From an uncultured Bacilli bacterium (lineage in GTDB: Bacteria; Bacillota_I; Bacilli_A; RF39; UBA660), in contig CAJTZW010000007.1 of assembly GCA_910584305.1 (NCBI GenBank), positions 34,804 to 66,803 on the forward strand: a stretch of DNA of 32,000 nucleotides, given 5' to 3'. The position numbers and the translations under genes were made by a program. Of the stretch, positions 6,896-13,936 are shown in pieces. Below the pieces are notes generated by a model. The model searched no databases. It was not told the origin of the DNA and worked only from the letters and a program-made list of their open reading frames with translations. The first letter of the stretch is position 1; each line of letters opens with the position of its first letter.

Positions 6896-8314
6896 CTACT
6901 TTCTTTTTCCAAAATCTTGGACTTCCTTATATACAAAGTTACATAATTTTGATAGTTGCTCTTTACCTATATAAATAACCCTACCTCCTGGAGGACTTAT
7001 TTTATGATTTCCGAAAACAATCCAAATCGCATTCAAATACTGCGTAGGCATAGAGGCATACCCATCTGTAAATATAATCTTATTATCTGCTTTAGTAAAA
7101 GAATTCACAGCCACAGTAAAGTCTGTTCCTCCACCACCCACAAGAGGTATATTATCTATATCACTATTATCCCTCACTTCATAAAAACCATAAAACACAG
7201 TATCAAAGCATCCAACTTTCATTTTTGAATTTTGTAAAATATTTTTACATTCTCTAAGAAAATTTCTAAGTAACACTTCACTGATAGACCCACTTGTATC
7301 AAGCAGTATCTCCGTTTCACTAGACTCTATTTCTTCTAAATGTGGTGTCACAACACCATATTCTATCGATGCATTTTGAAATGACCAATCTTCTAACCCC
7401 TTGACTGTTTTGGATAATAAGGTTGTCCAATCAACAAATGAATCTGCCACACCAATTTCATCTATATTTCTTACAGAAGAATTTGTAGAAATTCCAACAC
7501 CCACAGATTGTTTTGCTAAAGCATTTCTTAATTCCTCCAACTGTTTTTTTCTTTCTACCTTGTTTTGTTTAAAAACCTTTTTTTCTCCTAATTCCGCTAC
7601 CTTTTGTACTTGTTCTTTAATTTTCTTTTCTCGCTCATCCTGTAAAGATACTTGTCCATTTTCCTTAGAATCTTCTTTTCTCTGGTTTTTCCTAAAAACC
7701 TTATCTAAAAAACTACGATTAGAGCTTTGTTGTTTTGGCTCTCCTTTTTCTTTTAAGTTATTATCATCCGGCTGGTTCTTTTGCTTCTGCTTCTCAATAG
7801 CCTTGTCCCACATACTATGTGAATCATGCCCAACGCAATTATTTCCTTTTTCTGGTGTAGAATTTCTATTTTTAGACAGTGAATTTTCATCATTTTTGTT
7901 TTCCCGTTTTTCTAATAACCGTTGATATAGTTCCTCTGAATCATAATTAAGAGCATCAGAAATCTCAACAACGTTATCCACCAACGTCAATCCATCATTC
8001 TTTAAAAACGCATTAATCACAGCATCTGTTGCTTTATTCCATGTTTCTTTGTCTTTACCTTCACTTCGATAAATATGATTTAAAGCGACATGGCAGACTT
8101 CGTGTGCAAAGACAAACACCTGCTCACTTTCTGACAAATTATTTATAAAATCTGGATGATAAAAAATAGTTTCGGCATCTGTTCCTGCCGTCGGATTTCC
8201 ATAATCATCTACACAATCCATTGTCTCAACATAATTTAAATTTGCTGTTATACTCCCAAAGATAGGATATTGAACAAGTAATTTACTTTTTATTTTATTT
8301 ATATCAACACTCAT
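6896..8314 (-). CDS. HExxH metallopeptidase-like domain / K,E,Q-rich linker / VWA domain protein (DUF2201-like partner of MoxR ATPases)
   Basis: The N-terminal domain carries VFVFAHEVCHVALNH (HExxH). A ~130-aa low-complexity K/E/Q/N linker follows. The C-terminal domain has the MIDAS-like motif ILLDTSGSIS and a ...GGGGTDF... segment. Its start lies 1 nt after the upstream ORF's stop. Confidence 0.75.
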   Translation of the reverse strand: MSVDINKIKSKLLVQYPIFGSITANLNYVETMDCVDDYGNPTAGTDAETIFYHPDFINNLSESEQVFVFAHEVCHVALNHIYRSEGKDKETWNKATDAVINAFLKNDGLTLVDNVVEISDALNYDSEELYQRLLEKRENKNDENSLSKNRNSTPEKGNNCVGHDSHSMWDKAIEKQKQKNQPDDNNLKEKGEPKQQSSNRSFLDKVFRKNQRKEDSKENGQVSLQDEREKKIKEQVQKVAELGEKKVFKQNKVERKKQLEELRNALAKQSVGVGISTNSSVRNIDEIGVADSFVDWTTLLSKTVKGLEDWSFQNASIEYGVVTPHLEEIESSETEILLDTSGSISEVLLRNFLRECKNILQNSKMKVGCFDTVFYGFYEVRDNSDIDNIPLVGGGGTDFTVAVNSFTKADNKIIFTDGYASMPTQYLNAIWIVFGNHKISPPGGRVIYIGKEQLSKLCNFVYKEVQDFGKRK

Positions 8315-8315
8315 T

Positions 8316-8708
8316 TTATATATGTACCATCAATGAATATATATCTTCATCAATAGGATGTTCCTTTAAATTTGAACAAGTAACAAAAATCATACAATTT
8401 GGTGGCAACTCAAATGTACTAATTTTCTTATATTTTAAAATCTCCAGAAACTTTCTTTGTTCCTCTTTTGGAATTTGATTAATACAGTCAATCACTAACA
8501 AAGGCACAGCCTGATGTAATACCTCACTATACCATTGGGGCGACATATAATGAACATCCTCATAATGTCCTGACAACAAAGAAACATCACAATTAGCAGG
8601 CAAAACAACTCCCCCCTGAATTGCATTGGCAGAAATATCTTCTAATAGAATTGGAAAAACTCCCGCTTTTACATATTCATTCAAAAATTTTAATCTCTCA
8701 TTATTCAT
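8316..8708 (-). CDS. small AAA-like protein lacking a P-loop (degenerate MoxR-type core)
   Basis: PLLVIDCINQIPKEEQRKFLEILKYKKISTFELPPNCMIFVTCSN...IDEDIYSLMVHI parallels ILFLDEISNVKSNYILNLAFNLVLDRELDGKWQLPENARVVVAGN...PLFNRMAHVFI in the upstream ATPase. It has no GxxxxGK[ST] motif and reads DC instead of DE. An ATGA overlap joins it to the upstream ORF. Confidence 0.45.
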   Translation of the reverse strand: MNNERLKFLNEYVKAGVFPILLEDISANAIQGGVVLPANCDVSLLSGHYEDVHYMSPQWYSEVLHQAVPLLVIDCINQIPKEEQRKFLEILKYKKISTFELPPNCMIFVTCSNLKEHPIDEDIYSLMVHI

Positions 8709-10324
8709 CGTTTTTGCCCTCCCATCGATAGATGCTCTGCTCGTAACTCAGCAATTCGCTCCAGTCTTTTATCATCTCCATGAACCCAAAGACTATCGAA
8801 AGTTGCCACTATCTCAGGGCCTAACTTTGTTATAAAATTTCTCACAACTTCTAAATTTTCATCTGTAACAAAAGAAAGACCTACCGCTGTCGCATATTTC
8901 TCTGAAATATCCATATATTGTAACCCTTGATCACTATAATTATTACTTACTATATCCTCTATCGTTATTACTTGTTGCTCACAAAACTTAACAAAATCCT
9001 TTGTAATTTCCTCACCGACAAGTGCCCTTAGCATATTCGGATTTTTAGTAGTATATAAAACTTTAGAAGCCAGCTCCCATTTTCTTGGATCAGCATTTGG
9101 AGTTTCTCCATTATAAGGTGTTCTAAGCACCTCCTCACCCCTATATGCTACATAAGCATAAATAGCTGGGTGTATTTTTGATTCTAACTCTGTTCTCTTA
9201 TAATCAAGTCGCTCATACTCTTCCTTTGGTGTGGCTGCCCATTTAAGCCATCCATCTACTGTAGTAGTAATAAAAACATGGGCCATTCTATTAAATAATG
9301 GTTGTGGGATTTCTGTTGCAGAAATAGAATCACATTTTTCATTTCCAGCAACAACAACCCTCGCATTTTCTGGTAGTTGCCACTTCCCATCTAGTTCCCT
9401 ATCTAACACTAAGTTAAATGCTAAATTAAGTATATAATTCGATTTTACATTTGAAATTTCATCTAAAAACAATATATGAATTTTATCAGGTTCTTTCTCA
9501 CATTTTTCTTCTAATCGCTTTAACCATGTAGGCTTAATATCCATCATTTCACCCGTTTGTTGGTTATACACAGATTTTCCTGCAAAAGAATCTGGATTTG
9601 CTGTTATCAAATACACAATTTCTGGATTTGGATCAAGTTGCTTCACTCTCGCACTCTTTCCCTCACTCGATCTACCATGTAAAAATACAGTAACTCCACC
9701 TTCTACAGATCCTTTAATGATATCTTCTTCACTTACCTCGCTGAAATCAAAGCCATATGGATTTTGTTTCCTATACGACGTTGTAGTTTCCTTTGATTGC
9801 GTATTAACTACATTAGAAAACGTCAATTCATTATGTTGAAACAAATCTTTTGATAAGTAATCATTCATAAATTTTTTAATATCCGTTGTATTAAAATTTT
9901 TTGTCTTATAATCACTCTCACGGTTAAATTGTACACCTGCAAAAATTAGCTTTTCCATCAACATAATCTTATACTTTTCATCTATCAACCATTTGACTGG
10001 CTGTACTTCTATCCAAACAAAATCTCCATCTTGATACTGCTCACCATTTGAAAGTGTAAATTTTTCCCCATCATAATAAGAGTTAGCCTTTACTCTAACA
10101 TACTTTTTACCATCATATTCATACTCAATATGTTCTTGTGCTAAAAAAGCACTATCATATTCATCATTTTTCCGTGAATCTGTTGTATATATATTTCCTG
10201 TTTTATTTAAAAATCCAGCATGTAATGCAGTTTCCAAACGATTCTGTAATAATTTAGAAACCGCTGTCTGTGGATAATAGCCATATTCTACCTCTAATAT
10301 TTCATCTTTTCCTCGCCCACTCAC
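8705..10324 (-). CDS. MoxR-like (AAA_5-type) AAA+ ATPase with N-terminal GxYPQ...W(L/V)(I/L)D beta-rich domain; start codon doubtful
   Basis: Motifs are Walker A GRSSEGKS, Walker B HILFLDEIS, sensor-1-like VVVAGN and PLFNRMAHVFI (the MoxR L-x-RF motif). The listed GTG start at 10324 has GGAG directly abutting it with no spacer, and there is no ATG in the first ~120 codons. The frame is continuous with the upstream VR-containing ORF. Confidence 0.75.
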   Translation of the reverse strand: MSGRGKDEILEVEYGYYPQTAVSKLLQNRLETALHAGFLNKTGNIYTTDSRKNDEYDSAFLAQEHIEYEYDGKKYVRVKANSYYDGEKFTLSNGEQYQDGDFVWIEVQPVKWLIDEKYKIMLMEKLIFAGVQFNRESDYKTKNFNTTDIKKFMNDYLSKDLFQHNELTFSNVVNTQSKETTTSYRKQNPYGFDFSEVSEEDIIKGSVEGGVTVFLHGRSSEGKSARVKQLDPNPEIVYLITANPDSFAGKSVYNQQTGEMMDIKPTWLKRLEEKCEKEPDKIHILFLDEISNVKSNYILNLAFNLVLDRELDGKWQLPENARVVVAGNEKCDSISATEIPQPLFNRMAHVFITTTVDGWLKWAATPKEEYERLDYKRTELESKIHPAIYAYVAYRGEEVLRTPYNGETPNADPRKWELASKVLYTTKNPNMLRALVGEEITKDFVKFCEQQVITIEDIVSNNYSDQGLQYMDISEKYATAVGLSFVTDENLEVVRNFITKLGPEIVATFDSLWVHGDDKRLERIAELRAEHLSMGGQKR

Positions 10325-10373
10325 TCCGTTCGTGGAGATTGTAGATAAATTAGAGAACGGTAAAGCTGGGCGA
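10313..10373 (-). promoter_or_regulatory. nested inverted repeat at the 3' boundary of the VR (candidate DGR target-recognition hairpin/cruciform)
   Basis: On the plus strand, tcgccca (10313-10319) pairs with tgggcga (10367-10373) and ccgttc (10326-10331) pairs with gaacgg (10355-10360). The internal loop is a symmetric 6x6 and the apical loop is 23 nt. The partner arms are absent next to the TR. Confidence 0.35.
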
Positions 10374-10439
10374 CCACACCCAAATCGTTTAATGACTCTA
10401 GTCTAGATACTAGTTCCAATTCAGTAAACGACGCGCGCG
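10366..10439 (-). repeat. DGR variable repeat (VR)
   Basis: This 74 nt matches 11957-12030 at 64/74 positions. The 10 mismatches (10383, 10384, 10392, 10401, 10403, 10407, 10413, 10419, 10422, 10426) all correspond to T on the TR plus strand, which is A on the coding (minus) strand. Confidence 0.9.
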
Positions 10440-10720
10440 TCATTATCACCGTCATCAGTTTTTGTCCAATACCAGCCTGTACGGCTTTCTAATGAAGTAT
10501 CTCCATTATAGTGATATCCACTAGACACATAACCACCTAAAAGAATTGCAAAATCTGTGATTGCTGCACTTGTTCCCCTTTTTTGAATAACATCTAATGC
10601 TTGTGTTCCAAATATTTGTTCCTCTGTTAAAAACGTAAAATCATTCATACGTAAATCACCAACCTCATAATAACATAATTTTCTGAAATAGAAAATACAA
10701 TCTTCTACTTTTTTTGACAA
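10421..10720 (-). CDS. DGR target ORF fragment, C-type-lectin-like 'WWLRS...VRPAL' type domain truncated by a stop inside the VR
   Basis: The sequence ...FTFLTEEQIFG...TGWYWTKTDDGDNDARVVY* continues past the stops as IGTSI*TRVIKRFGCGRPAL. The listed start is TTG at 10720 and overlaps the RT stop; an alternative ATG at 10648 has a GGTGAT Shine-Dalgarno. The last 6 sense codons and the stop lie in the VR. Confidence 0.6.
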   Translation of the reverse strand: MSKKVEDCIFYFRKLCYYEVGDLRMNDFTFLTEEQIFGTQALDVIQKRGTSAAITDFAILLGGYVSSGYHYNGDTSLESRTGWYWTKTDDGDNDARVVY

Positions 10721-11739
10721 AAATTGGAAATAACTGCCAATTTTAGCCTTGAGCTTTCACTTGTATCCTTAATATGATTATAATATGCATTCTTCCTAGC
10801 ATATATATATTTTTCATCCACTAACCCCTTATTCTCTAATTTTGCTAAAGTTTTAAGATGTCTTTTTAATCTCACTCTAGAAGAATTTCGCAATTTTTGA
10901 ATTACCTTTCCTGTCGGTGTTAAATAGTGACAATATCCTAAAAAGTCAATCCCATTTTTTACCTTGCCTATTTGTGTTTTATTATTTAGGGATAAATCAA
11001 GCCCTGTTTTACAAAGATTTTTTATTTCTTCCAAACAATATTTTAAATATGCCTTATCACTATGTATTAAAATCATATCATCCATATAACGAATATAATA
11101 TTTAATTTGTAATTTTTCTTTGATGAAGTGATCCACTTTATTTAAGTATAAAAGAGCAAACCACTGACTTGATTGATTCCCTAGTGGCAATCCTATACTG
11201 TTTAAAGAGGATTCATTAGAAATCAATTTTTGTATCATCCACATCTCATCCTCTGAAAAAGAGATTTCCCTCAAAAGATTTTGTAATATTCGATGATTTA
11301 TACTAGGAAAATATTTTTTAATATCACACTTTAAAAAATAAAATTCATTATTTTTGCACAAAAAGTATTCCCTCCTTAAAAAACTTTCCAATCGATGAAT
11401 TGCAAAGGATGTTCCTTTTTCCTTTCTACAAGCCGCATTATCGTATATAAGTTTTCTCTCTATTCTAGACTTTAAACAAACATCACAAAAACACCTTATT
11501 AATACTCTATCCTTATAGGGTGGCGCTTCAATCAAGCGTTCTTTGGGTTCATATACAATAAACTTTCTATACCCACCTAACTCATATTTTTTAGTAACAA
11601 TTTCATTCATCATATTCACTATATTAGCACTTAAATTTGCTTCAAAACGTATAACCTCTCCTTTATGTTGTTTTGATTTTCTACACTCCTTATGTGCACT
11701 ATATAAATTTTCAAATGTAAATATATCTTCTAACTTCAT
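10705..11739 (-). CDS. DGR-type reverse transcriptase
   Basis: The catalytic motif is YIRYMDDMILIH (YMDD). The DGR-diagnostic motif-4 LGNQSSQ ([ILV]GxxxSQ) and the N-terminal YEPKERLIEAPPYKDRVL are also present. I prefer the ATG at 11739 (GGAGGT 5 nt upstream, MKLEDIFTFENLYSAHKECRK...) over the ORF-track start at 11790. Confidence 0.9.
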   Translation of the reverse strand: MKLEDIFTFENLYSAHKECRKSKQHKGEVIRFEANLSANIVNMMNEIVTKKYELGGYRKFIVYEPKERLIEAPPYKDRVLIRCFCDVCLKSRIERKLIYDNAACRKEKGTSFAIHRLESFLRREYFLCKNNEFYFLKCDIKKYFPSINHRILQNLLREISFSEDEMWMIQKLISNESSLNSIGLPLGNQSSQWFALLYLNKVDHFIKEKLQIKYYIRYMDDMILIHSDKAYLKYCLEEIKNLCKTGLDLSLNNKTQIGKVKNGIDFLGYCHYLTPTGKVIQKLRNSSRVRLKRHLKTLAKLENKGLVDEKYIYARKNAYYNHIKDTSESSRLKLAVISNFCQKK

Positions 11740-11956
11740 TTTACCTCCAAAAAAAGAACACCCCTTATAACGCACAAAGAATGCATACACATCCGTTGTT
11801 TGTGTAGGTGTTTTATATATTTGTCCACCGCACTGATTTTCTTTTAGCGGTTAGAAAAGAAGTAAATTCCTTCACTTTATAGCACGGATATACCCTACTT
11901 AGAATATATTTCTCTGGCCTGTTTTCTAGATTCATAAAATCTCTTCAAAAGTGAAT

Positions 11957-12030
11957 CTGGGCGACCACACCCATTTCGTTTATTGACTCTATTTTAGTTA
12001 CTATTTCCATTTTAGTTAACGACGCGCGCG
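11957..12030 (-). repeat. DGR template repeat (TR), non-coding
   Basis: This is the A-rich copy of the 74-nt repeat, with 27 A on the minus strand. It lies 217 nt upstream of the RT start and 72 nt downstream of avd, and no ORF covers it. In the target frame it reads VV-AAC-TAA-AAT-GGA-AAT-AGT-AAC-TAA-AAT-AGA-GTC-AAT-AAA-CGA-AAT-GGG-TGT-GGT-CGC-CCA. Confidence 0.9.
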
Positions 12031-12102
12031 ACCAAGGAACACCCAACAAACAAAAGAAAAAATAAATCTACTCCTTAATTAAAAACCTTTCGGTTTAAAA
12101 TC

Positions 12103-12708
12103 CTACATTCTTTTTCTCCATCTTTCATCATCACTCTTTTTCCAAGCTGCTGTCAAATTCATTGCCTCTGATAATTGTATAGAGATTTGTTTATACTGCC
12201 GTGGTAAAATACAACAGGCATTTTCTGCAAGCATAGCAATATATCCTAAAAGTTTTAATTTAATAATTGCTTCTTTCTGATAATTCTCTCTCTCTTTCTT
12301 TTTATCTAAACTATCTACACGTATAAAATTTGCTTGTAGTAAACATTCTAATGACTCTAAACAATAGTTTTGCATACGGTTTACAAAAACACCACGATAT
12401 TTCTTAGGAGATTTCTCTGTAATTGCGATAATATAAGCTCCCAATTTTTTAACAGAAGTTATTACAATCAAATCATTAGAATTATATGGGATTTTTAAAA
12501 TACGATCAAGCCCTTTATCCTGTTCTTCAATCGTATCCCTTATCATTTCCTGATCAGCTTTTTTATCCTCTGAAATCCGAAATGCCATTTTTGTTGCAAC
12601 TCTATCCTCTATTGTATTAACTATTCCTTCTACATTTTCTACATCCCTTGGTATTTTTAAATTATTATCTCTACTAACTTGTAACATACTACTTACTACC
12701 TCAATCAC
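12103..12708 (-). CDS. avd: Avd-like accessory variability determinant (four-helix-bundle type) with ~70-aa N-terminal extension
   Basis: The C-terminal ~125 aa (DLIVITSVKKLGAYIIAITEKSPKKYRGVFVNRMQNYCLESLECLLQANF...LKLLGYIAMLAENACCILPRQYKQISIQLSEAMNLTAAWKKS) follows the Avd/23S-IVS four-helix pattern and sits immediately upstream of the TR. The start is uncertain: GTG at 12708 or ATG at 12687. Confidence 0.6.
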   Translation of the reverse strand: MIEVVSSMLQVSRDNNLKIPRDVENVEGIVNTIEDRVATKMAFRISEDKKADQEMIRDTIEEQDKGLDRILKIPYNSNDLIVITSVKKLGAYIIAITEKSPKKYRGVFVNRMQNYCLESLECLLQANFIRVDSLDKKKERENYQKEAIIKLKLLGYIAMLAENACCILPRQYKQISIQLSEAMNLTAAWKKSDDERWRKRM

Positions 12709-13248
12709 CTATACAACAAATAAATCTCCTATAAAATTAATTCCATCGCTTACAAAATTTATAAACAAATAGAATGTATCCCGAATTCTGTTTTTCTTAT
12801 AATCTTTCTTTGTAATCTTAAAAACGACACCATCTCTACATGATATAACATCACACTTTTGATGGTATCTTGCATAACGTTTCTTTATGATATCTATATC
12901 AATATCTTCATTTTTAACAAAAAGAACAACACTATACTCTGCCAAATATAAGCTATCTGAAATAAATCGTCTATGATACCCATGCAAATCATCATAAGAA
13001 GCAATAATATATTGAATATTTTGTTTACGAAATTTCTTTCGAATCTTACGATAAGAAATCTTTTTAGATGGACCCCTTTTTTTACCTTCCCCACCTGTAT
13101 AATTTAAATCTGATAATACTGTAAATGTTGTAATATTCTGATTTTTATCAATTTCAGATAACAATTTCTCATCTAAACTGCCAAATCCCAATACACTTCC
13201 ATGCATTGTACGAGAATTATCTAATAAAACCTTTTCTATTTTATTCAT
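12709..13248 (-). CDS. hypothetical protein with a C-terminal hydrophobic segment
   Basis: This ORF is wedged between tcdA (8-nt overlap using the ATG at 13248 with a GGTGAT Shine-Dalgarno) and avd (its stop abuts the avd frame). It has a basic patch KKRGPSKKISYRKIRKKFRK. I recognise no family. Confidence 0.45.
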   Translation of the reverse strand: MNKIEKVLLDNSRTMHGSVLGFGSLDEKLLSEIDKNQNITTFTVLSDLNYTGGEGKKRGPSKKISYRKIRKKFRKQNIQYIIASYDDLHGYHRRFISDSLYLAEYSVVLFVKNEDIDIDIIKKRYARYHQKCDVISCRDGVVFKITKKDYKKNRIRDTFYLFINFVSDGINFIGDLFVV

Positions 13249-13936
13249 AAACATCACCTATCATATGGTGTACAAGATAACTTGTACAAAGAAGTCCCGC
13301 TACACTTGGAACAAAGGAACAAGAAGCAATCGTAATACCCTCATGTGGTATAGGTCTCTCCATACTACAAACAACAGGAACTTTACCTGTAATATGCTCA
13401 TCACGTACCATTTTTCGAATAATTTTCGCAATTGGATCATAAGAAGTTTTTCGAATATCCATAACTTGAAGTTTAAGAGGATCTAGCTTATTTCCCGTTC
13501 CCATACAAGAAACAAAAGGAATATTTCTAGAACTACATACACGAATAATCTCCTTTTTTACTTCTATAGTATCACAAGCATCAACGACATAATCCACTTC
13601 AGATGTGATTCGCGTAGCAATTTTCTCTGGTAAAATAAATTCACAAATCCCTATAACATTACACTCTGGATTAATATCCAAAATTCTCTCTTTCATAACA
13701 TCCACTTTATATCTTCCAACCGTTGAATGAAGTGCAATAATTTGGCGATTGATATTGGTAATATCAACTGTATCACCATCTATTATAATAAGCTTACGAA
13801 TGCCAAGACGGGCTAGCGACTCTACAACATATCCACCAACTCCACCAATTCCTATAACCAAAACGGTTTTATTTTGAATGATTTCTACTTTATCTTGTAA
13901 CAAAAGTTCTAATCTTGTCCATTCCATATGTAACAC
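13241..13936 (-). CDS. tcdA: tRNA threonylcarbamoyladenosine dehydratase (ThiF/HesA-family, TcdA-like)
   Basis: VLVIGIGGVGGYVVESLARLGIRKLIIIDGDTVDITNINRQI is an E1-like Rossmann motif, and the ~230-aa size is typical of TcdA/CsdL. Confidence 0.8.
   Translation of the reverse strand: MLHMEWTRLELLLQDKVEIIQNKTVLVIGIGGVGGYVVESLARLGIRKLIIIDGDTVDITNINRQIIALHSTVGRYKVDVMKERILDINPECNVIGICEFILPEKIATRITSEVDYVVDACDTIEVKKEIIRVCSSRNIPFVSCMGTGNKLDPLKLQVMDIRKTSYDPIAKIIRKMVRDEHITGKVPVVCSMERPIPHEGITIASCSFVPSVAGLLCTSYLVHHMIGDVYE

Follow-up and report, generated by a model that had tools for sequence, protein, structure and literature searches.

Templates of diversity-generating retroelements (DGRs) that are built on AAY codons are stated to be unable to make nonsense codons (bioRxiv 10.1101/2024.11.15.621889; PMC10907252), and surveys discard DGRs with premature stops (PMC5758913). 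The locus described here raises the question of what becomes of a target gene when the template itself carries stop codons. It lies in a 32,000-nt stretch of DNA, the window (positions 34,804 to 66,803, forward strand, of contig CAJTZW010000007.1, assembly GCA_910584305.1), from an uncultured Bacilli bacterium (GTDB lineage Bacteria; Bacillota_I; Bacilli_A; RF39; UBA660). On the minus strand it holds an avd-like gene, a template repeat (TR), a reverse transcriptase (RT) gene and, downstream of the latter, a variable repeat (VR) inside the gene of an AAA+ ATPase (Table 1). The locus is read here as an active chromosomal DGR of the order avd, TR, structured spacer RNA, RT, which diversifies the N-domain of the ATPase and whose template stops split the target gene; the probability of this reading is put at roughly 85%. 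A preliminary description of the window had called the DGR complete. All defining parts are indeed present, but the copy of the target in the window is interrupted by two TR-templated stops in the VR.

Two features are new: a nonsense-prone template with mostly truncated alleles, and an N-terminal, putatively DUF6273-like VR on a MoxR-like ATPase in a widespread cellular cassette. The literature searched, a limited set that gives no proof of novelty, yielded no account of a DGR template with stop codons.

Table 1. Coordinates of the retroelement, its target and the cassette genes in the window
Feature	Position	Strand	Description
avd-like gene	12103..12708	minus	201 aa; ~80-aa N-terminal extension and four-helix Avd-like C-terminal part
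TR	11951..12030 (core 11957-12030)	minus	in-frame TAA at 12012-12014 and 11994-11996; IMH*-like end GGGTGTGGTCGCCCAG
Structured spacer RNA	11752..11969	minus	from TR 3' end to RT start; 7 predicted helices
DGR reverse transcriptase	10705..11739	minus	344 aa from ATG 11739; mechanical open reading frame from GTG 11790
Target gene	8705..10648	minus	~647 codons, one frame from ATG 10648; N-domain, beta middle domain, AAA+ ATPase
VR	10366..10439	minus	~25 codons, AAY-codon frame; TGA 10421-10423, TAG 10403-10405; IMH-like end 10366-10381
Small hairpin	10317..10335	minus	CCNC-GAACGGAGTGA-GN'GG; ~30 nt 3' of the IMH, inside coding sequence
130-aa protein	8316..8708	minus	second cassette gene; start overlaps target stop
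472-aa protein	6896..8314	minus	third cassette gene; DUF2201_N (HExxH metallopeptidase-like) and DUF2201 vWA-like

The repeat pair and its template stops

The cores of TR and VR are 74 nt each and identical at 64 positions. All ten mismatches fall on adenines of the TR, which holds 27 A and 47 non-A positions (hypergeometric P = 1.17e-5). An independent recount reproduces exactly what had been described for the repeats, and the earlier hand figure of about 1e-5 agrees with the computed value. The similarity runs 6 nt beyond the core, to 10360 and 11951, which adds one A>C and one C>T difference. Both are fixed across 20 related TR lineages (TR ...CCAGATTCAC, VR ...CCAGCTTTAC), and they are therefore taken as the marker pair IMH*/IMH (initiation of mutagenic homing) and not as products of mutagenesis. 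The GC-rich GGGTGTGGTCGCCCAG is common to TR and VR and is followed by ATTCAC in the TR versus CTTTAC in the VR in 20 of 20 lineages. Judged by sequence, the GC-rich end and its divergent tail behave as a directional marker, IMH in the VR and IMH* in the TR.

Read in the frame of the target, the TR gives ARVV N * N G N S N * N R V N K R N G C G R P (asterisks denote stops), with TAA at variable codons 2 and 8. A template design that bars nonsense is a typical, not a strict, trait of DGRs, and this template lacks it.

Natural alleles of one strain

Exact-sequence look-ups in public assemblies led to 14 further loci of the same strain (L001 and L080-L092). Their flanks show zero mismatches to the window over up to 13.6 kb, except for one in L086, and the TR is identical in all 13 loci that include it. 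Together with the window, these loci hold 10 distinct VR alleles. The nine ungapped alleles carry 116 substitutions at TR adenines (60 to G, 37 to C and 19 to T), which corresponds to a frequency of 0.48 per adenine, and 1 of their 117 substitutions falls outside the TR adenines. The ratio of 116:1 disposes of the concern that related genomes might show non-adenine mismatches at comparable frequency. Two contigs of equal length (79,215 nt), each from a different run, are distinguished by 12 positions, all of them in the VR, and one of the two encodes a full-length target and the other a truncated one. The DGR is demonstrably active: its VR is rewritten at adenines while its TR stays constant.

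Substitutions of template adenines are unevenly distributed among the other three bases (A>G 52%, A>C 32%, A>T 16%), and two TR adenines are never substituted in the nine ungapped alleles, namely the third base of AGA at codon 10 and the A of CCA in the IMH-like end. The allele of L001 is characterized by a 1-nt insertion and one non-A change near the IMH (L001:5936-6050). Together they cause a frameshift and create a new start codon (ATG), at which the called 562-aa product P0001 begins; the indel may be the work of the RT or a fault of the assembly. A protein cluster of a human-gut homologue (P0048, 90% identity) contains 818 member sequences on short contigs, a size that one would expect if the VR is diversified at a high rate in human populations.

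The outcome of the template stops can be read from the alleles of the strain. Codon 2 is a stop in seven of the ten and codon 8 in seven, and nine carry stops or a frameshift. A single allele, that of L084, is full-length: it has Ser and Tyr at codons 2 and 8 and encodes a protein of 671 aa (P0123). The exact 539-aa product of the truncated gene is found in 28 indexed blocks versus 3 contigs for the 671-aa product, counts that include the same samples several times. Given the empirical rates of substitution, the probability that a TAA codon ends up as a stop, unchanged or altered, is 0.53, which gives an expected full-length fraction of 0.20. One full-length allele in ten fits this neutral expectation (P = 0.37), and the stops are therefore neither purged nor visibly enriched.

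An alternative genetic code, which would make the VR stops harmless, was rejected. The conserved genes of the window end in TAA (19), TAG (7) or TGA (5), and all three stops are seen at the same codon among the alleles. Since all three terminate ordinary genes of the window, the standard genetic code applies.

The target gene and its domains

The preliminary description placed the VR downstream of the RT and did not identify the target. The downstream position holds; the VR lies not in a small stand-alone open reading frame (ORF) but in the N-domain of an ATPase gene, where it occupies codons ~72-97 of a protein of ~650 aa. In the window the gene is split into a 75/99-aa fragment (listed as 10421-10720) and a 539-aa ORF (8705-10324). 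The AAY frame, with seven AAY codons, is common to both, and the sole interruptions between them are the TGA and the TAG of the VR. A search with the read-through translation gave more than 3,000 homologues, most of which are 630-690 aa long and cover 96% of the query, so that the ancestral gene was a single ORF. The homologues begin with MNDFTFLTEEQ, which places the start of the target at ATG 10648. A 44-aa ORF in the open third frame (10321-10455) was considered as the frame of the VR and discarded, because the AAY codons and the ...G.RPAL homology are in the stop-bearing frame.

In the AlphaFold (AF2) model of P0123 (predicted local distance difference test score, pLDDT, of 78), an N-domain at residues ~30-130 is followed by a beta-rich middle domain at ~140-290 and an AAA+ module at ~330-660; the first 25 residues, counted from a TTG start, are disordered. 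The ATPase part dominates the matches of a Foldseek search with the full model. The AAA+ module matches MCM, MoxR and NorQ-type AAA+ proteins, with the best per-target template modeling (TM) scores for the MoxR-family structure 2r44 (TM 0.46) and for NorQ (9qh4/9qhg), and it also resembles dynein-related and MoxR-like phage ATPases. In addition, the ATPase family phrog_1297 is matched, and weak AAA_5 matches occur in homologues of the target. On the modelled fold, the ATPase appears to be of the MoxR class of AAA+ proteins (MoxR/NorQ-like). A sequence search of the PDB with the target profile gave nothing useful.

The N-domain is best approached through the homologue P0002, which matches DUF6273 (PF19789) at a score of 27.3 bits, against a cut-off of 23.5; of the 172 profile positions, 77-168 are covered. 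The match spans exactly the VR-bearing region. In gut Firmicutes phages, DUF6273 is described as a C-type-lectin-like target of DGRs in which the VR forms the C-terminal end of the domain (PMC10743442, PMC11792537). The middle domain of the present target may supply the N-terminal half of a DUF6273-like fold, as a circular permutation.

Some homologues (P0002, P0004, P0011) are modular and have either two modules of N-domain and middle domain (909-914 aa) or two ATPase modules (1018 aa). In several genomes, two tandem paralogues of the target precede a single copy of the genes for the 130-aa and the vWA protein. Modular or expanded target loci are L006, L007, L020/21, L033, L062, L074, L076, L077 and L079.

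Reverse transcriptase, Avd and structured RNA

The RT matches Pfam RVT_1 and phrog_1423 (1e-97) and contains the motifs IRYMDDMIL and LPLGNQSSQ. Its best sequence match in the PDB is 8ub7_A, a 328-aa chain named "Reverse transcriptase" (E = 9e-38). In the alignment LGNQSSQ stands opposite IGSLTSQ, and YMDD is aligned, in keeping with the two motifs, YMDD and the DGR-specific LGNQSSQ, that had been noted from the start. Judged by its aligned sequence, the chain is presumably the bRT of the Bordetella phage; its name in the PDB gives no such indication, and a search of the literature with the code 8UB7 found nothing. No group II, retron or Drt3a RT scores better than 1e-8 against the enzyme, which places it with DGR RTs and not with retron, group II intron or Abi RTs. 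The nearest phage RTs are likewise DGR RTs, the closest being that of DGR phage nd12 (43.6% identity). The 344-aa product is found unchanged on 14 contigs.

The avd-like ORF matches phrog_3206, "Avd protein of DGR", over residues 78-199 (E = 1.8e-15), and the proposal of an Avd-like four-helix protein just upstream of the TR is borne out by this match. The gene is kept directly upstream of TR and RT in related loci. A PDB sequence search with Avd gave nothing useful.

The stretch between TR and RT is a strongly conserved RNA that is predicted to fold. RNAalifold on 20 distinct TR lineages yields 45 pairs, with 95.8% of cells paired. Of these pairs, 25 are changed on both sides, versus 13.4 ± 1.7 in shuffles and 3-11 in slid controls. 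In helix 2, the extreme 3' end of the TR, GAUUCACUUU, pairs with AAAGUGAA ~85 nt downstream, and the helix shows covariation from CA/UG to UG/CA. By analogy, this RNA may act as the spacer RNA of the Bordetella DGR does. Scanning the window with Rfam and for tRNAs gave no matches, which leaves the spacer RNA without an Rfam family, and a promoter/terminator scan did not rise above shuffles.

A candidate element for target recognition is the small conserved hairpin that follows the VR. Its N/N' pair covaries in the family alignment (UA 10, CG 7, AU 3, none broken), and the exact paired motif is present in 25 of 27 targets with a DGR versus 39 of 91 targets without one (Fisher p = 2e-6). The hairpin emerged only from the family alignment; a single-sequence fold of the VR 3' flank is not significant (z = -1.1). 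The loop holds the GTG that starts the 539-aa ORF.

Proposed mechanism

By analogy with the Bordetella DGR, the reaction would start with the binding of the TR-spacer RNA by RT and Avd, and nucleotides would be misincorporated opposite template adenines during cDNA synthesis. The cDNA would then replace the 74-80-nt VR just downstream of the RT gene, guided by the IMH and possibly also by the hairpin at 10317-10335. The VR is predicted to encode the ligand-facing end of the DUF6273-like (C-type-lectin-like) N-domain that is fused to the MoxR/NorQ-type AAA+ module. Each homing event would randomise ~12 codons of the putative lectin-like surface and would carry a chance of ~80% of severing the variable domain from the ATPase; the two remain joined only if the rewriting turns both TAA codons to sense, which is expected in ~20% of events. 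In this manner the element would both diversify the domain and toggle the gene between full-length and split forms. The variable domain may serve as a cytoplasmic ligand sensor for the MoxR-type ATPase and its vWA/metallopeptidase partner, the split form may represent a functional OFF state, and the ATPase-vWA cassette is probably a conflict or defence-type system.

Several points weigh against this reading. A single run series (ERR3199xxx) accounts for most assemblies of the strain, samples recur across ENA, Logan and NCBI sources, so that the alleles are not all from independent hosts, and VR diversity was counted between assemblies. The matches of the avd-like ORF to NCBIfam DivGenRetAVD (1e-7) and Pfam bAvd (1.6e-4) are both under the curated cut-offs. 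Pfam, NCBIfam and PADLOC give no match for the read-through target, nor does Pfam for P0123 or for the window protein itself, and no PADLOC model matches any protein of the cassette. The putative lectin-like fold of the N-domain is drawn from the DUF6273 match of a homologue and from the literature; the AlphaFold model of the isolated N-domain is poor (pLDDT 47) and was not used for a fold search. Finally, no convincing Shine-Dalgarno sequence precedes the GTG at 10324 that starts the 539-aa ORF.

Template stops in related loci

Of the related loci with enough upstream flank, 27 have avd-TR-RT directly before the target, 19 keep remnants of the RT and 52 lack an RT. In-frame stops are present in 12 of 20 distinct related TRs: at codon 2 as TAA/TAG in nine, at codon 8 as TAA/TGA in five and at codon 10 as TAA in one. 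In the other TRs and in most homologues codon 8 is TGG and encodes an invariant Trp. The stop states are scattered on the RT tree, with TGG, TGA and TAA at codon 8 on different branches, and the TR stops therefore have several independent origins. Stops in the VR are also found in other species (L002, L094, L003, L019, L029, L060), as are VR frameshifts (L005, L061). The junction between N-domain and ATPase is broken in 8 of 27 loci with a DGR versus 1 of 62 DGR-less loci and 0 of 21 RT-remnant loci (p = 4e-5). The four related phage DGRs (nd12, MT835552, Lelie and Saumur) have no in-frame TR stops; in three of them the order is likewise TR-RT-target, and the gene that immediately follows the RT contains the VR.

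RT fragments are kept upstream of an intact target in 19 loci, including L010, L015, L030, L037, L064, L066, L072 and L078, and these loci show repeated decay of the DGR with retention of the cassette. In L025, L032 and L162/L170, codon 2 is TAA in the TR and AGA, CCG or AAG in the VR, a mismatch at the non-mutable T. Either the TR changed from AAA to TAA after the last homing event or a stop in the VR was reverted by ordinary mutation. The DGR of L025 and L162 looks decayed, with a split RT and 7 of 19 mismatches at positions other than A.

Origin of the template stops

The described mechanism stands whichever of two accounts of the template stops is preferred. Somewhat the likelier of them, and one to which we give even odds, regards the stops as a neutral or degenerative by-product. 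The TR is untranslated and under second-order selection, and in a genome of 31% GC, drift by G>A and A>T would turn TGG and AAA into TGA and TAA. The DGR would then vandalise a target that its hosts can do without in the guts sampled, and the family would be heading to loss of the DGR or decay of the target. In line with this, the VR alleles look neutral, DGR loss is common (19 RT-remnant and 52 no-RT loci versus 27 with an intact RT), TGA and TAA at codon 8 are simple transitions from the TGG found elsewhere, and the differences of L025, L032 and L162 at the T of TAA fit a recent AAA>TAA change in the TR. A by-product fits less well with the same positions being struck repeatedly and with stops that persist over deep divergence while the element and the cassette genes stay intact. 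Moreover, the target is intact in 21 of 21 RT-remnant loci, and its retention after loss of the DGR argues that it is useful rather than dispensable.

The second account, programmed phase variation, is possible but doubtful. It holds that the TR stops are kept by selection and that the DGR acts as an ON/OFF switch as well as a diversifier. The sensor domain would be uncoupled from the ATPase in most cells (about 80-90% of alleles), whereas the re-coupled minority would have a new specificity, and the arrangement would amount to bet-hedging for a costly conflict system. Selection would account for stops at the same two or three codon positions in 12 of 20 TR lineages whose RTs are only ~55-67% identical, for their repeated and independent origins (at codon 8 through TGG>TGA>TAA, at codon 2 as TAA in two clades) and for the intact RT, Avd, target and partners of the stop-bearing lineages. 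The lack of TR stops in the four phage DGRs and the published position that DGR templates avoid nonsense (PMC10907252; bioRxiv 10.1101/2024.11.15.621889) point the same way. The frequency of VR stops, however, equals the neutral one, both in this strain (1/10 ON versus 0.20 expected) and in other species (~7/13 versus ~45%), and thus gives no signal of selection for or against stops. In addition, AGG would reach Trp without the risk of a stop.

It is very improbable that the stops and variants are artefacts, that is, assembly chimeras of a heterogeneous VR or products of cross-assembly between TR and VR. The 1-nt insertion and non-A change of L001 and the VR frameshifts of L005 and L061 would suit such an origin, but identical alleles were obtained in independent assemblies and with different assemblers (L080/83/88/90, L081/85, L082/89), the changes fall 116:1 at A, and stops are seen in other species too. 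TGA and TAG are absent from the TR and hence cannot have been borrowed from it by cross-assembly. That another RT system (retron, group II intron or Abi/DRT) lies beside a chance repeat is scarcely credible, as the similarities to group II, Drt3a and retron RT models in NCBIfam and PADLOC are far under the family cut-offs (8ub7 9e-38 versus group II 1e-8) and the SQ motif, Avd, the A-only TR/VR differences and the observed VR turnover all speak for a DGR.

Comparison with known systems

The DGR of Bordetella phage BPP-1 (mtd-VR, avd, TR, brt) shares with the present element an Avd-like gene, a TR of AAY codons, an RT with [LIV]GxxxSQ and YMDD, the A-specific flow from TR to VR, a GC-rich IMH/IMH* pair with a divergent 3' end, a structured RNA after the TR and a hairpin after the VR. 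The differences concern mainly the target. Here it lies downstream of the RT and not upstream of avd, its short VR (~25 codons) is near the 5' end of a long gene and not at the C-terminus, and it is an AAA+ ATPase, presumably cytoplasmic, and not a phage tail fibre. The two in-frame TAA codons of the TR and the ~80-aa N-terminal extension of Avd also set the element apart.

The closest phage RTs in the collection belong to phage nd12, with its "tentaclins" (PMC10743442), and to Faecalibacterium phage Lelie (PMC11792537), both of the order TR-RT-target. In these DGRs, as here, the target gene starts at the RT stop, the VR is near its 5' end, and the variable domain ends in ...G.RPA/L; it is DUF6273/lectin-like, as is predicted for the present target. 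Their targets are phage-borne receptor-binding proteins with Ig-like domains, whereas the target described here is an ATPase fusion in a cellular cassette.

The preliminary description had called the order avd-TR-RT-VR non-canonical. The order itself is confirmed and is invariant wherever a DGR is present in the related loci. It is, however, a known variant, as an architecture with variable target position (B1; PMC5758913) and variable cassette order (PMC3521204) have been described, and it is shared with the nearest phage relatives nd12, MT835552 and Lelie. The gene order is typical of this RT clade and is not new.

The MoxR-vWA "ternary" NTPase conflict systems (PMC7159879, PMC10907252) likewise combine a DGR with a MoxR-class AAA+ ATPase and a vWA/peptidase-type protein, and their variable domain is predicted to be cytoplasmic, lectin-like and possibly a sensor. 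For these systems the codon design is stated to prevent nonsense (Kaur et al. 2020, PMC7159879; Dore et al. 2024, PMC10907252). Their VR is located in C-terminal CLec domains of the vWA protein or another sensor, separate from the ATPase, whereas in the present cassette the variable domain sits at the N-terminus of the ATPase itself. Their hosts are mostly multicellular proteobacteria and cyanobacteria, as opposed to the small-genome gut Bacilli of the present cassette. The vWA partner of such systems is present here (DUF2201 8e-13 and DUF2201_N 2.5e-29); neither VMAP, the third component, nor a recognised effector domain was found in the cassette (Pfam, NCBIfam, PADLOC and PHROGs on the 130-aa protein).

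Phase-variable contingency loci (slipped-strand repeats and invertons) resemble the locus in their local, high-rate and reversible switching between intact and truncated forms, and in assemblies that differ only at that site. Here the switch is made by templated reverse transcription and adenine mutagenesis, not by slippage or site-specific inversion, and each ON event brings a new binding-site sequence.

Cassette and genomic setting

The target is the first gene of a three-gene cassette. The gene of the 130-aa protein follows it in nearly all related loci, and this protein has no match in Pfam, NCBIfam, PADLOC or PHROG. The 472-aa protein matches Pfam DUF2201_N (2.5e-29) and DUF2201 (8e-13) as well as phrog_1314 (7e-57), and its synteny is conserved. 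The label of phrog_1314, "HNH endonuclease", looks like a mis-annotation given the DUF2201_N/DUF2201 architecture. The cassette is kept in 250 species genomes, which are metagenome-assembled genomes of gut "Bacilli", "Tenericutes" and Clostridium-CAG. A phage-borne origin was rejected, as the cassette is found in 1 of 2.9 million viral contigs.

The remaining window is ordinary chromosome with a dcw cluster, spoIIGA-sigE, lexA, lepA, queH and yfhO. A conserved chromosomal position is not supported; in other species the cassette is not beside mraZ, thiF or sigE. A 182-aa ORF (12709-13257, minus strand) abuts avd upstream and overlaps the end of a ThiF-family gene. No family library matches it, and because all related loci lack it, it is not counted as a part of the element.

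Implications

The locus is a well-sampled natural counter-example, in a clearly active DGR, to the view of AAY-rich templates as nonsense-proof. Nonsense-bearing templates occur in many gut Bacilli species, and in the strain of the window the target is mostly truncated in the wild. Survey filters that demand an intact target ORF can hide this class of DGR behaviour. Two questions follow: whether DGRs can act as ON/OFF switches besides diversifiers, and what might be sensed by the presumably cytoplasmic, DGR-diversified cassette of putative lectin-ATPase and vWA/peptidase, which occurs in ~250 species genomes. If the stops are indeed selected, the element would be the bacterial counterpart of a receptor repertoire that is generated at random and kept mostly silent.

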